Source: a virus (Duplodnaviria; Heunggongvirae; Uroviricota; Caudoviricetes). Taken from it: a stretch of DNA of 35,817 nt. The position numbers were made by a program. Shown in pieces: positions 3,001-9,000 of the stretch. Within the stretch, counting starts at the first letter, position 1. Each line of letters opens with the position of its first letter. Where the stretch lies: positions 1 through 35,817 of the IMG/VR virus record IMGVR_UViG_2703718836_000012; one strand, 5' to 3'.

Positions 3001-6000
3001 TTGGGTTGGTTTTCACACGTTCACTCATTCTCACCAGTTCGAGGTTATCATTCCCTTTGTCAATAATTCGCTGCCCCACTCCGAGGGAGCCAGCCGTTAA
3101 CGCAAGGCTTCCTAATACCCCACCACCGACGATAGGAGCATTCCCGCCCTTCTGAGCCTTTAGCTTAGTGGCTGCTGCGGCATACTGGGTACGCTGTGCC
3201 TGTGTCACTTTGGCTTGCTGTGCGGCTTCTCTGCGTAACAGGGTTACACGCTCACGAATAGATGCGTTCATACGGGCACTGGTCAGATTGCCTTTGGCAA
3301 ATTCCTCTGTTTGCTGACGTATGAAACGTAACGCTTCATATTGAGATTTAGGATCAAGTCCGTATTTACCTTTAATTCCTGACACTTGTAGCCCTGCATG
3401 GCGAAGTTTAAGCTCGGCTGTCTCTTGGTGCTTCTGTAGCTGCTGCTTCGCTTTCAGATTGGCCTTTTCATCCCTGGCTTTCTGCTTCTCTGCCGCACGT
3501 TGGGCTTTCATTTCCTTCGTATCACGAGGTTTATCATTAAAACGTGCATCATCGGCTTGTTGACGAGCTTTCTGTCTGCGCTGCTTCTGAGCCTGGAAGC
3601 GAATCTTGGGATCGGCTATTTTCTGGAAGTGCTTTTGAAGGTTATCCGCTGCGGCTTTAGCCAGAGCAATGCTCTGCTTATCCACCACGAATGTAACCGT
3701 ATTGCGGATCTGACTGACCGAAATATCAAGCATCGCCACCGCCTTTCTTACTCACCAGATAATTAAGTGCATCTGATACACTACGCCCACGATGTAATAA
3801 CTGACGTAGATGACCGTGATCTATTTCAAGCACACGACACACTCCCGCCAGATTTAATAACTCTTCTGCTGTTTCAGCATTTACGGCGAGGTGAAGCCCC
3901 GCGCTTTTTACAATCACTTGCATTTATCTTTCCTCTTATTCTGGAAATAAAAAAGGGCGGGAACACTGGGGAGATGTTCCCAACGTTCACACGCCCTATT
4001 CAAAAGCCTGATTATTGCCTGCGGGTCAGGCTCCCGCTTGCTCATTAAGCAGTGATGGTGATCTTCACTTGCATACCTAACGCATGGTTCACTGGTAATG
4101 CGCTGTTTTCGTGCATAACGTGGTAAGCATCGCCGCGCTCGCTCAGGTAGCCCCAAGAGTAGTATTCAGCAGGTGCAGCATCGATCAGCGCGAAGTTGCC
4201 AGAGGCAGCGCCGTAGATGTTCTGATAAGCATTTGTGCCTTTACTGAATACCGGAACCGCCACCATGTCAGCATCATCTGGCATCTGTGCAAGGATCAGC
4301 GGATCTGTCACTTTAACAATGTCGATAGGCGCACCAGGTAGGCTAAACGTACTAACACCAGGGAGAAGCTCGTGACGCTGGTAGAATAGGTTACGGTCGT
4401 CATATGGCGCTACATACTGGAACGCCTTAGACATACTGTCAGAGAAGCGAATCTGGCTAAATGCAGCAGGTTTAGCGAATACGATCACTCGTTCAATCTG
4501 TCCAGCCAATCCACCTGCGGCAGCCTGAACTTTGTCTAAGATGGCATCAAAATCCTGTGCCGCTGTCGCTGTGCTCACGCTGGCTGTCATTGGCACCACA
4601 CCGAACAGTTCAGCATAAGAGATCAGTAGGTCATCAGTTGCAGGCGTATAAACTTCACCTTTGAACAGAGCACGGGCCAGGTAGGATTCACGGGTACGAA
4701 GATAGGCAATCTTATGTTTCCCTGTGTACTCGGTGTACAGGTCGGTAACGGTTTGCTCGTAGTCCGTGCCTTGCACCCTTTTCCCTTGTACGTCTACTGG
4801 TTTGAAGGTGTCTTCCCTCGCAAACCAAGGGATCTCCACCAAATATTCTTTACCATTCTGACGCGCGGTAGTGTCGTGGCTTGATGAATAACGACTCTGC
4901 GGGGTGTTAAACAGGCTGTAGTTATCATCCAGAAGCTGTGTCACCACCACTTTCGGATTCTGAACACCTACCCCGTCGAAGAGGTCGAGAGCATTCATAA
5001 GATAGTTACGTTCCGGCAGAGCCTGGAAGATTGGCGCTAAATCGACCATCTCACGCCCAATTGCGATTTTACTCATTATTTATCTTCCTTGATTAAGAGG
5101 TGAAGAATGGACGGCATACGAACCCTTTGGATTCGAGCGTGGTGATAGCTGCGGCGTGATTAGCTGCGTGCAGGTTGTCGGCTTTCAGTGCTACGAAGCT
5201 GCCAACATTAGGCGCACGTAGGACATTCACGGTTTTACCGTCGCCAGCACTCACGAAATCACTTACCACCACAAAGGCATCATCGCCGGAGGTGTATAGA
5301 GCGCCATCAGCGCCGATAACATCGCCGCATTCAATATCTGCTGGCAGGTCGAAAACACGGCCTTCTACGACTGCAAAAGAATCAGTGGCGTAGCTCACTA
5401 CGTCAGTGAAACTCTTACGAATTGGGAAAAGTTCGGTTAGGTCTACAATCATTGTTGTTTGATTTCCTTGGATTTGATTGCGATCCGTTCCTGCATACTA
5501 AGTTGAGGTGTGTCCTCAGAAGGGAAATACTGGTCTACAGCTTTTTCTATTTCTTCAACGGTACATCCTGCCATTTCAGCCACTTTAGCTATTAACTCAG
5601 GATTAACTTGAATCACTTCGGATTTGTATTTTAGGATTCGGTCGCGATTGTTTATTAAGAACATTGTGTTGTTCCTTCGCGTTATAACTGCGTTTATCCT
5701 TCCATTAATAACGGAAGTGTTACATGCAGATTGTTAAAAAGGGGCGATTAAGCCCCTGGAGAATATGCCCTTGTTAGAAAGCATTCTGTTAAAATCATTT
5801 TCGTTTCGGAGGATTATGATGTTAAAGAAAGGTTTCTTGAAAAAATGAAGGGCGCAACTGTTACGAATAACAGAAGTAGGATCGCCCGTCATTGCTCCCA
5901 CTTCAAAACAGAAGCCCTTCTGTCATGGCGAGAAGTGGGAATGGAATTTCTTATCACCCTGGAATAGTAATAAGAGATTGCCAGCCTGAACGTAACTACC

Positions 6001-9000
6001 ACTGACGGCGTTTATTCAGTCTGACTGCTTATAATCCTAACGGGGTTATAAGGTTTAGAGCACGGAATATGCTCTCTGAAAGAGAATGTGCGCGGTGATT
6101 GTTCGTTACCACCCGACACAAGTGGGAACGCCCGCGCCACCCTTTGGAACTAAACACAACAAAGGAAAACAACCAGCTTTCAGAGAGGATATTCAATGGG
6201 AGAGAGCGCCGCCTATGGGAAACGGCATTCTCAGGGAGTGCGTATTGTTATACGAGGGTGGAGTGATTCTAATACCTACCCTATAACTTATTATGACACA
6301 AATAGCACAATATGTCAAGATATTTCGTAATATTTATGTTATAGCGCATTCTTCCGCGATCTGGATGGCAAGCTCTCCGAGTTCAACGGTGATGTGTTCC
6401 ATAGCGAGGGCAAGCTCCTCCATATCATTGGCAATGCGCCACGCCTGATCCACGGTGACGGTATCCCCGTTCATCTGCACCAGGTGCTCTACAGCAGCAT
6501 TCCAGTGTTCAAGGGCGGTGATTGCCTGTTCAGTGTATTGCAGCGCTTCCAGGAGCGCGGAGGGCGTTCTCTCACACCACGCCCTATTAACAAGCCACAG
6601 GGCTGGTAGATGCCAAATATCGTGGAAATAGTTAATTAGGGTGTTCATGGTGTCCATAGTTTTATTATTCATTGTTGTTTTCCTTGTCGTCAAAGAGAAT
6701 ATCAAAATCTTGTATGTGGTGAGATAAGCCGTTAGTTTGGGAATACCCCACCCAGTCAACATAGTTTTCTGCGTATAGCTGCCACTTCTTAAGATTCGAT
6801 GAATCAACACGGTATTCACGGCGGCGGCGTGGTTTATAGAAGACGTTATCCGAAGATGCTAAAACATCCTGCAATAGTTCAAACTCTGCCCCTACGGGCA
6901 CCGTTGCAGGGTATTCTATTATTTCGGTGATCCATTCTCCTGGAATAGACTCTCGTGCGAGGTCTTGTAGAGAAGAGGTGTATTTACGTTTGCTGGCGCG
7001 AGTGGCTTTTTCGATTCTAACAATGTTACTTCGTTCTTTTCGTCCCATTCATTCCTCGTAGAGGGAAACTTCCGTGTTTTCTCGTTAATGTCCATACTGC
7101 GTAAAATGCAAATAACCAATACATAGCGATGATCATAAAAGTTTCCCTATTGTGTGTTTAGAAATTAGAGTAGATAAATTCTACATTGTCTCGTTCGATG
7201 TGTTTCAGCGTGAATGATAGATAATGGCTTTCATCGTCGATATCGATCACACCAATGTTGCGCAGCGCACGAAGCCAGAATCTGATCCCGTTATCACTTA
7301 CACTGGATTTATCAGATAGCTCTCCGTAAGAAATTTTAGTTTTTCTGCCCTTCCAGAACCAGATAAGCGCATAATAAACGCCCTTCCCGCTATCGTTGAT
7401 CTGTATCTGGTTTGTGTTGTTCAATTTTATGTATTGTATCAATTAGTCCTCCTGATTAGTTCCAGTGGCGTTGTATTGTGGCGATCCCTTTCTTCATTAG
7501 TTCAGCCGTTTGTCTTTGGGTCAATCCTTTGGATTTGTGTTCCTGTACTTCTTTACGGGTGTTGTTACCTTTAACTTTCTTTCTCACTTTCCCAAATTTC
7601 AGACATTCAATCTTTGCTCCAGGGAAATAATGCTCTTTGATGTATTCAGCTGTTGCCAGATCCGGTACTACGAACACCAGAGGGTGATCAGTGTCAGCAT
7701 TACGGATAGATGTACGGCTAATAAACTGGTAGCACCTTTCATAATTCATCGCGGAGCGTTGCTTCTGTTCAAATTCTTCAACATTCCAGCCGTTAAGCTC
7801 CGCATACTGCCGCCATTTACCTTGGAAATCTTTATCAAGATTACTGCATCCGAGAAATACAGCATTGTGTATGTGCTGGTAATGGTTCAGGCCATAGGAA
7901 GCCATTGAAACACGGATACCACGGGAAGCATCGGTAAGAATTTCATCCCCTATCGTAGTAAACTGACACAGGGATTTATCTCTGTTGGTAGCGAAGATAA
8001 ATTCACCAGGCACGCGCTGGATGATTTCCTGGAGATGTTCGTGAAACACCTTCTGTAATGCTGTCAGGGTGCATCTGTTTTCACATACGGCGACCAGGGA
8101 GATCGGTACACGCTTATGTTTACGTCTTTCAAGTGGCGGCTGTAAATCTTCACCAGCTTTCTCTACTTCGTATTTCGTCAGATGTTCAGCAGCCCAGACA
8201 AACAAACTTCGAGAAGAGCCAGCACCTAAGAGTGTGAGTTGTTCAGCCCATTCTACAGATCTGATAATTGGTGAAGCAGTGAAGGCGAACAGGTGTTTAT
8301 TCTCTTCGTAGAGAAGTCCAGCACCCTGCATAATCGCCCAGAGCAGGCGCTTTAACTCAGCACCATTCGCCTCTGTTTCGTGCCAATAGTCGTAGAAATC
8401 TTCACGCTTATCCTCACTCAGGAATAACAATCCGTCCCGCTCTTCCAGCCAATCCAGGAATGGGAAATTTTGTTCCGTCCGTTTGGTATGCTGCACTTTG
8501 ATGTAAGCGCCAAACATTGCATCAGGGATTTCATCAACAAAGATACTGAAATTACGGAGAAGGTTTTGAAGTTCCGTTTCAAGCGCTGCGCGATAGCAGT
8601 AATGAATGAAACATTGATGTGTACAGATAATAACCGAATGCTGGAAATCGTATTCCAAGGTGGAAATTAGGTGTCTTACCGCTTCTGTTTCGGTGTCCAC
8701 ATGGAAACTCTTCACCCGTCTGTCTTTTAGTTCTTCCCTCACCTGCCCACATAATTCATGTGTTGGCATCACGAGAAGAAAACGAGGGGGAATTGCTTCG
8801 GAATTTGTTAATAAACTTGACTTGATGTAGTGCTGTAACGTGGTGGATTTTCCAGATCCGCAAATTGCATCAACGAATTTTACTACGCGTTTCTTTTCTT
8901 TCATCAGTTTCCTCTTTTTGTAGGATAGTGTGTTTGACAATGGAGTTAACCAGGGCCGGAATACTTACACCTTTAATTGTGGCGGCTTCACGGAGCGCCT

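Follow-up and report, generated by a model that had tools for sequence, protein, structure and literature searches.

In phage lambda the stop codon of Q is followed by the promoter pR' (TTGACT-17-TAAATT), an RNA of roughly 190 nucleotides (nt) called 6S RNA, the terminator tR' and the late genes, and related pR'-derived short RNAs are known from Stx phages. Here we examine a locus with a similar order of parts in IMG/VR record IMGVR_UViG_2703718836_000012 (Caudoviricetes), of which positions 1 to 35,817 were analysed; this whole 35,817-nt stretch is referred to as the window. On its minus strand an RNA of about 548 nt precedes the capsid genes of a small integrative element, probably a phage satellite. 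As at lambda pR'-tR', an early or regulatory gene is succeeded by a strong sigma-70 promoter, an apparently untranslated, terminated RNA and promoterless structural genes; by analogy, both arrangements would yield a short RNA whenever the promoter is open and would make the late genes dependent on read-through. The differences are that the present leader, at about three times the length of the lambda RNA, folds into several conserved, covarying domains, that no Q-like protein is recognized in the element and that its DNA is not similar to phage late regions. A promoter-proximal -10-like pause element of the lambda type is not consistently present in the RNA family: many members have TAGGGT (T-A-N-N-N-T) after the start site, but other members have AAGGGT or TAGGGA. 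Next comes a conserved TCGAAUC, located in the loop of a hairpin whose stems covary, and this placement indicates a role at the RNA level.

Further described systems bear a partial likeness to this locus. The immunity RNAs CI of P4 and c4 of P1/P7, of about 70-80 nt, are processed from promoter-proximal leaders and have short complementary boxes in their targets. They share with our RNA the nature of a satellite or phage leader with a strong promoter and premature termination, but the latter has neither conserved complementarity nor an Rfam match and stands before a capsid operon instead of a replication or antirepressor operon. The put RNA of HK022 consists of about 70 nt with two stem-loops and is a cis-acting antiterminator that gives constitutive read-through; it likewise is a structured RNA transcribed directly after a promoter and ahead of both terminators and the genes under its control, but the leader studied here is 550 nt long. 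ROOL, GOLLD and OLE also exceed 500 nt and combine a conserved, complex multi-branch structure with a setting in phage-derived DNA. Unlike these RNAs, which occur mainly in Firmicutes, our leader has proteobacterial hosts, no neighbouring transfer RNAs (tRNAs) and a fixed operon-leader position. The IIR transcript of PLE and a non-coding RNA (ncRNA) of about 800 nt of ICP1 are prominent transcripts without open reading frames (ORFs) between gene clusters (PMC7567579). The present RNA, too, has no conserved ORF and lies between gene clusters of a satellite-like element. The IIR of PLE, a satellite in Vibrio, is flanked by inverted repeats and matches ORF leaders in antisense, and neither feature is seen for the leader RNA. 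By analogy, the RNA appears to work most like a lambdoid late leader, and its size and fold resemble those of the large phage-associated RNAs.

A structured RNA between a predicted promoter and terminator

Comparison with homologues supports a structured RNA. Relatives of the capsid protein, which are confined to the Enterobacterales (Klebsiella, Enterobacter, Citrobacter, Cronobacter, Pantoea and others), gave 13 genome loci and 12 contigs, and a 20-base pattern from the best-conserved hairpin (6202..6232) retrieved 9 viral-contig and 65 metagenome loci. With nhmmer we recovered 66 full-length copies, which come from genomes of Enterobacterales, from metagenomes and from viral contigs; 56 copies are distinct, and 50 remain below 98.5% identity. 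Among 5,426 complete E. coli genomes the region is present in 13-14, as three sequence variants; carrier strains include E. coli RM10410, CFSAN051542, XYEH3934 and AR_0128. Twelve helices (120 pairs) of the window fold were mapped onto a MAFFT alignment of 49 sequences. Standard pairs occupy 85.8% of cells, against 39-50% after a shift of the 3' partners by 1-3 columns, a paired percentage that is inflated by taking the structure from one member; the compensatory counts are less affected. Both-sided changes are seen in 33 of the 120 pairs, and compensatory cells number 211 compared with 82 +/- 7 in shuffles (0 of 500 shuffles reach 211). In a cleaner alignment of a single domain, analysed with its own RNAalifold consensus, 97.1% of cells are paired (30-57% when slid) and 14 of 34 pairs are compensatory. 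Hairpins are even swapped whole with pairing kept, from CUUAUAA/UUAUAAG to CAUUCAU/AUGAAUG, from GGGCG/CGCCC to CCCCG/CGGGG and from GCGCGG/CCGCGC to GCACGG/CCGUGC. The loops A-UUCGAA-UC (5' hairpin), UUUCCCAUA and CCGUUAGG are invariant within stems that vary. An earlier note, made from this DNA alone, had proposed a candidate novel structured ncRNA at this place; the homologues uphold that proposal, with covariation in the stems in place of codon-like conservation, as does Rfam, which returns no family.

The boundaries named in the earlier note also hold. It had seen a near-consensus sigma-70 promoter directly after the 112-amino-acid (aa) gene, and TTGACA indeed begins 15 nt past the stop of that ORF (6334), in the sole site scoring that high within 4500-7500 in a consensus scan. 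Across the 49 homologues the -35 and -10 elements remain good though hexamer variants and spacer sequences differ (TTGACA...CATAAT, TTGACA...TACTAT with TG, TTGCAT...TATACT and TTGACA...TAGAAT), a pattern that indicates selection on promoter function. With its own promoter, functionally conserved in homologues, the RNA is not simply the 3' untranslated region of the upstream gene. The promoter spacer holds an inverted repeat, TGACA-N15-TGTCA, and most family spacers carry one, other variants being GTAAC-N6-GTTAC or TAACA-N4-TGTTA; these repeats may be operators for an element-encoded repressor, and the pattern hints at operator control. As a repeated operator, GTAAC-N6-GTTA was rejected, with a single copy in the window against 0.5 expected. 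The terminator, expected some 550 nt downstream, is found after about 548 nt as a GC hairpin with five U, with a folding energy of -11.5 kcal/mol. It was read directly from the sequence and was not listed by the consensus scanner, possibly because an A-U pair extends the stem and leaves four U in the tail window. Its stem exists in three interchangeable versions in the family: GGGGC/GCCCC, GGCGAC/GUCGCC and GGGCUAC/GUAGCCC. The RNA would start about 6-8 nt past the -10 element (A6284 to G6281), and its 3' end falls within the U-run 5740-5736.

The minimum-free-energy fold of the RNA (-175.3 kcal/mol, z = -6.2, 100 shuffles) contains both hairpins singled out beforehand, GGGCG/CGCCC around CUGUUA-UUCG-UAACAG and CCCACUUC/GAAGUGGG around ACAGAAG/CUUCUGU. 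The opposite strand folds about equally well (z = -5.8), and folding energy was discarded as a strand test, with z near -6 for both strands. The minus strand is assigned instead from the orientation of promoter and terminator, from the promoter function conserved in the 49 homologues and from the departures from reference Watson-Crick pairs, which are G-U in 381 cells and A-C in 165. The longest minus-strand ORFs comprise 55 aa (GTG, 5734-5901, through the terminator), 55 aa (TTG, 6029-6196) and 42 aa, close to the maximum of about 52 aa estimated before. None is conserved in position, length or frame among the homologues, indels between variants are not multiples of three, and in some members neither strand has an ORF longer than 32 aa. 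Covarying pairs and the lack of a conserved frame thus argue for a structured non-coding RNA.

By the tests applied, this RNA appears to belong to no described family. Rfam 15 gave no match across the window at gathering thresholds, and only chance-level hits (E 1.4-6.2) in 5500-6500 when E up to 10 was admitted. A scan of the window for tRNA and transfer-messenger RNA found none, and BLAST against 50,697 phage records, in distant mode, and against 72,556 plasmids detected nothing similar. The carrier E. coli genomes have no RefSeq annotation at the position of the RNA, and a limited literature search found no description of the RNA or of the element family. Two specific candidates were also set aside. 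A CsrA sponge was rejected on about four NGGA motifs, counted by eye in the family consensus, against about nine GGA expected by chance at this length; a primer of the ColE1 RNA II type was rejected since the consensus scan shows no plus-strand promoter-like site in 5735-6318 and the RNA ends at an intrinsic terminator.

The RNA is built from successive modules (Table 1) that differ in how they vary. Around its loop with a 6-nt palindrome, the 5'-terminal hairpin has stems that covary as AAGU/ACUU, AACGU/ACGUU and AAUGU/ACAUU. The multi-branch domain, to which the 97.1% of paired cells and the 14 of 34 compensatory pairs refer, comprises a GCGCGG/CCGCGC stem, a variable inner hairpin with 9 of 9 pairs compensatory and a conserved GCAAUCA bulge, and 4 of the 9 pairs of its closing helix are compensatory; the covariance model R1 of the best domain matches window 6063-6235 with 168 bits. 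The hairpin at 6028..6052 is replaced by CAUUCAU/AUGAAUG in other members, pair 339-378 being CG in 26 and AU in 21 sequences. A boxA-like GCUCUUUA was considered as a nut site and dropped, being the 3' arm of a covarying hairpin. In the helix at 5980..6025, pair 413-463 alternates between GC (22 sequences) and UA (17 sequences). Where the window has the nested hairpin 5895..5941, other members have unrelated hairpins of different length. In the stem at 5844..5893 the change from GGGCG/CGCCC to CCCCG/CGGGG is found in 11 sequences, and 6 of 6 pairs of the apical hairpin are compensatory.

The leader of the capsid genes and its proposed roles

What does the position of the RNA tell us about its role? 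The earlier note correctly placed it between the helicase operon and the capsid genes, with no reverse transcriptase adjacent, but its remark that no partner gene is adjacent needs correction. No promoter-like site was found by consensus scan between 5735 and 5664, and with no promoter between the terminator and the next start codon the RNA is the physical 5' leader of the capsid operon. Across the family, 35-75 nt separate the terminator from the first start codon of the capsid module, and the hairpin in this spacer stays paired through G-U wobbles, so that the spacer is probably transcribed from upstream. Within the limits of the consensus scan, the capsid module would be transcribed solely by read-through from the RNA's promoter or from farther upstream. 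The flanking genes are strongly mosaic. Even so, at every full-length locus with inspected or matched flanks the RNA has the 112/127-aa genes on one side and the module of small ORF, 119-aa ORF and capsid gene on the other. In locus L056 the capsid protein is 23% identical (aligned part) and the RNA 68%; in L008 the figures are 57% and 85%.

More distant elements, with capsid proteins 77% down to 40% identical, keep the layout of a strong promoter directly after the upstream gene, a leader and the capsid module (small ORF, 119-aa-like ORF, capsid gene). Their leaders measure 250-930 nt and have no ORFs, and most have a GC hairpin with a U-run that by eye looks like a terminator. Except for part of L017, they could not be aligned to the RNA family by nhmmer iterations, shared conserved 7-mers against shuffles, motif regular expressions or the covariance model, and nine related loci gave no Rfam match in their analogous leaders; we regard these leaders as analogous, not demonstrably homologous. 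The L019 leader is 378 nt long with z = -6.2, and that of L011 (8402-9395), which is ORF-free and starts UAGGGGUA, about 926 nt with z = -10.2 (20 shuffles); it too is absent from Rfam. L011 is a related E. coli element whose capsid cluster, of 2,818 sequences, is about 53% identical to that of the window, an assignment made by similarity and not by direct comparison.

The reading that we favour, and to which we give about an even chance, is that the RNA is a terminator-gated leader of the late operon, the terminated product of which accumulates as a stable RNA. RNA polymerase would start at the strong sigma-70 promoter, probably under the control of an operator, and transcribe the leader, and most transcripts would end at the intrinsic terminator 5757-5736. 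The product would be a discrete RNA protected by a hairpin at each end. The promoterless genes of the capsid module would be made only if polymerase passes the terminator; after induction, polymerase might be let through by a processive antitermination factor, supplied by the helper phage or by the element, or alternatively by a factor that binds the invariant loops of the leader. Conditional termination and the stability of the terminated RNA are steps that we infer. Counted in favour of this reading are the functionally conserved promoter and terminator, the covarying structure without a conserved ORF, the short promoterless spacer before the first start codon, the presence of the RNA before the capsid module even where the capsid protein is 23% identical, the layout shared by the distant leaders and the like order of parts in lambda.

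Several observations weigh against a gated leader. No antiterminator was identified, and no Q-like or N-like protein is seen among the element proteins. In its predicted structure the 112-aa protein is a generic three-helix bundle with generic structure matches only, the AlphaFold model of the 127-aa protein is of low confidence (predicted local distance difference test, pLDDT, 54), and neither protein has a sequence match in Pfam, NCBIfam, PDB or PHROGs. Sequence similarity to phage late regions was not found in the 50,697 phage records. On inspection of the alignment, the three versions of the terminator stem are not accompanied by changes in any upstream segment, an argument against a riboswitch-like switch. 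Moreover, plain attenuation does not call for covarying structure over 550 nt, or over as many as 930 nt in relatives; gating leaves the 12 conserved helices and the invariant loops unaccounted for, and the leader may therefore also act in its own right.

This excess of structure is one strength of a second explanation, the main rival although less probable, in which the terminated RNA is itself the functional product. As a free-standing, trans-acting large structured RNA it would serve as a scaffold, divert a helper or host protein as a decoy, or assemble with itself into a particle, and its place upstream of the capsid genes would be incidental or secondary. Size and complexity, including a multi-branch domain with a covarying long-range closing helix, exceed what attenuation needs, several loops are invariant within varying stems, and the analogous 378- and 926-nt leaders are strongly structured as well. 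RNA identity of 63-88% across elements whose capsid proteins share 23-99% places the RNA under selection of its own. The palindrome UUCGAA, present in 47 of 49 loops of the 5' hairpin, is the kind of motif able to form loop-loop dimers; however, the window copy breaks it (UUAGAA). The satellite PLE and the phage ICP1, its helper, are reported to make abundant ncRNAs (PMC7567579), and GOLLD, ROOL and OLE are described as forming homo-oligomers (PMC12286853), but our RNA matches neither these three nor any other Rfam model with E up to 10 and has no tRNA neighbours. Relatives keep the layout and not the sequence, which fits a position-dependent role in cis better than a conserved machine, and without another promoter for the capsid genes the transcription of the RNA is tied to theirs. 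A bolder proposal, more tentative still, unites the RNA and the unalignable 250-930-nt leaders in one new class, large RNAs with a function of their own in phage satellites that encode a capsid protein. Such an RNA might be a platform for a helper or host factor or a particle self-associating through its palindromic loop, besides gating or instead of it.

A regulatory role, one of those suggested beforehand, stays plausible, whereas two of the others found no support: an RNA antitoxin, given the lack of direct-repeat families beyond two 11-nt near-matches and of any adjacent protein with a recognized family, and a retron-like element, given the lack of a reverse transcriptase among the neighbouring genes. 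It is improbable that the regulation is of the immunity or antisense type of P4 CI and P1 c4, in which processing of the leader would yield a stable fragment that pairs with mRNA leaders or ribosome-binding sites of the element or its helper and silences those genes. The satellite-like element and the promoter-proximal terminated leader recall P4 CI, and the PLE IIR transcript has antisense homology to ORF leaders (PMC7567579). A 12-nt perfect complement also joins RNA positions 118-129 to the Shine-Dalgarno (SD) region of the 112-aa gene (6674-6685). Yet complementary 11-mers in the window are near chance level (about 14 seen against about 9 expected), duplexes with the ribosome-binding site of the downstream gene are no better than with shuffled sites (z -3.0 to +0.8, mostly near 0), and different members use different RNA segments for them. 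Additionally, the leader is about eight times longer than CI or c4 and matches no Rfam family, including, if it is in Rfam 15, that of the C4 antisense RNA.

Lower still is the probability of a site acting at the DNA level, to which the RNA-like features would be incidental; between the replication and capsid modules this might be an origin of replication or a site for packaging (cos or pac). The element must have a packaging site and an origin somewhere, neither was located, positions between modules are typical of such sites, and folding energy is equally low on both strands. Against this stand the compensatory substitutions in hairpin arms, the whole hairpins swapped with pairing kept, the excess of G-U over A-C departures (381 against 165 cells) on the transcribed strand, and the functionally conserved promoter and terminator that bracket the region exactly; no iterons or direct repeats occur in it beyond the two 11-nt near-matches, and the ORF-poor 1.2 kb at 9340-10580 is a better origin candidate. 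Least credible of all is a coding function, for instance of the 55-aa ORF 5734-5901 or of a conserved MTGDPT... start: ORFs of 30-55 aa exist and an AUG inside the conserved block GGAGCAAUGACGGG opens one in most members, but ORF ends and lengths vary (31, 51, 55 aa), the AUG is missing from the 11 sequences with the CCCCG-type stem, GGAG lies just 2 nt from it, indels and ORF-poor members are as described above, and base pairing accounts for the conserved positions.

The host element and its surroundings

The element that carries the RNA spans about 12-13 kb, from window position 1 to about 13,000, and related contigs of 10-14 kb recur in assemblies. Besides the genes in Table 1 it encodes a 94-aa small protein, a 65-aa ORF and a 623-aa protein matching a tape-measure PHROG. 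No terminase, portal or protease was found among its genes; that it is a phage satellite is a probable interpretation. The 127-aa protein is conserved upstream of the RNA even in distant elements (27-40% identity), and its N-terminus, MGRKERSNIVRIEKATRASKRK, is strongly basic and recalls arginine-rich RNA-binding peptides.

Table 1. Positions of the RNA, its modules, its signals and neighbouring genes in the window
Feature	Position	Strand	Remarks
Sigma-70 promoter TTGACA-17-(TG)CATAAT	6318-6290	minus	11/12 consensus matches, upstream TG
RNA, about 548 nt	5736..6284	minus	promoter/terminator bracket, homologues, fold
5'-terminal hairpin	6256..6281	minus	covarying stems, near-invariant loop
Hairpin GAGAAUGCCG-UUUCCCAUA-GGCGGCGCUCUC, invariant loop	6202..6232	minus	helix 1, 96-100% paired, mostly invariant
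Multi-branch domain, closed by long-range helix CUCUCUGAAAG / CUUUCAGAGAG	6065..6194	minus	covariation
Hairpin CUUAUAA-CCCCGUUAGG-AUUAUAAG, conserved loop CCGUUAGG	6028..6052	minus	covariation
Helix GUCAGACUGAAU / UUACGUUCAGGCUGGC around small hairpin	5980..6025	minus	helices 8-12, 89-97% paired
Hairpin UCUUAUUACU / GGUGAUAAGA	5949..5975	minus	helices 13-14, 75-84% paired, weaker support
Nested hairpin CCCACUUC...ACAGAAG-GGC-CUUCUGU...GAAGUGGG	5895..5941	minus	window fold; variable module
Stem AAUGACGGGCG / CGCCCUUCAUU, internal loop AUCCUACUU, apical hairpin CUGUUA-UUCG-UAACAG	5844..5893	minus	helices 15-16
Long hairpin AGAAACCUUUCUUUAACAUCAU ... AUGAUUUUAACAGAAUGCUUUCU	5776..5837	minus	helices 17-18; reverse-strand self-match in nhmmer
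Intrinsic terminator AGGGGC-UUAAUC-GCCCCU + U5	5757-5736	minus	6-bp GC stem, 6-nt loop
Terminator-to-start-codon spacer, covarying hairpin, SD GAAGGAA	5665..5735	minus	no promoter-like site found
Capsid-module genes downstream of the RNA	4045..5664	minus	order: 71-aa, 119-aa, capsid
71-aa ORF	5449-5664	minus	
119-aa ORF	5093-5452	minus	in lambda gpD position
343-aa major capsid protein	4045-5076	minus	Phage_cap_E, lambda-E-like
112-aa three-helix-bundle protein	6334-6672	minus	travels with the RNA
127-aa protein	6665-7048	minus	basic N-terminus; travels with the RNA
Integrase	1-1215		
Helicase	7456-8940		
Second, short tyrosine recombinase	10579-11160		

A second strong promoter, TTGACA-18-TATTAT (11/12), with a leader of about 75 nt and a 12-bp terminator, precedes the early operon (window 9334-9239, minus strand), which consists of a small ORF, a ribbon-helix-helix-like ORF assigned by reading the sequence, and the helicase. 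Matching units of promoter, leader and terminator stand before the early operon in L017, L019, L027 and L003, and with this arrangement terminator-gated transcription looks like the general logic of the element. Between the early promoter and the short tyrosine recombinase lies an ORF-poor region of about 1.2 kb (9340-10580) whose DNA sequence is conserved in over 40 of the loci fetched and whose fold z-score is only -3.0; it could hold an origin, an attachment or packaging site, or another RNA. In L023 (9566-11108) and L024 (9541-11083) the Kiwa defence genes KwaA and KwaB replace the tape-measure-like gene, the position of which seems to be a cargo hotspot. Next to the Klebsiella element of L019, the chromosome flank contains the Hfq-binding small RNA isrO (L019 35-220; RF01397, 128 bits), which is unrelated to the leader RNA.

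Beyond the element, the minus strand of the window holds a myovirus-type prophage at 18673-31264. Its small (P27 family) and large terminase genes are followed directly by the tail sheath gene, with no portal, protease or capsid gene between them, and then by a tape measure, a DNA-circulation protein and baseplate P- and J-like genes. Genes for GtrA, a family-2 glycosyltransferase, a DUF6056 protein and an acyltransferase (13618-17900) separate the element from the tail-fibre genes of the prophage and are read as O-antigen modification cargo.

Implications

What does such a leader mean for the elements that carry it? Few conserved bacterial RNAs combine a length above 500 nt with a complex fold, and the majority of them have no known function. 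The RNA marks a family of small integrative elements that encode a lambda-E-like capsid protein in the absence of terminase and portal, and this family is unmatched in the phage and plasmid collections searched. It occurs in genetically tractable E. coli, Enterobacter, Klebsiella and Citrobacter, where the series of promoter, RNA, terminator and capsid genes offers a genetic handle. Should the RNA act in trans, the large phage-associated RNAs, an unsolved problem, would gain a proteobacterial case. Should it instead gate capsid expression, the timing of a satellite's structural genes relative to its helper could be studied directly.

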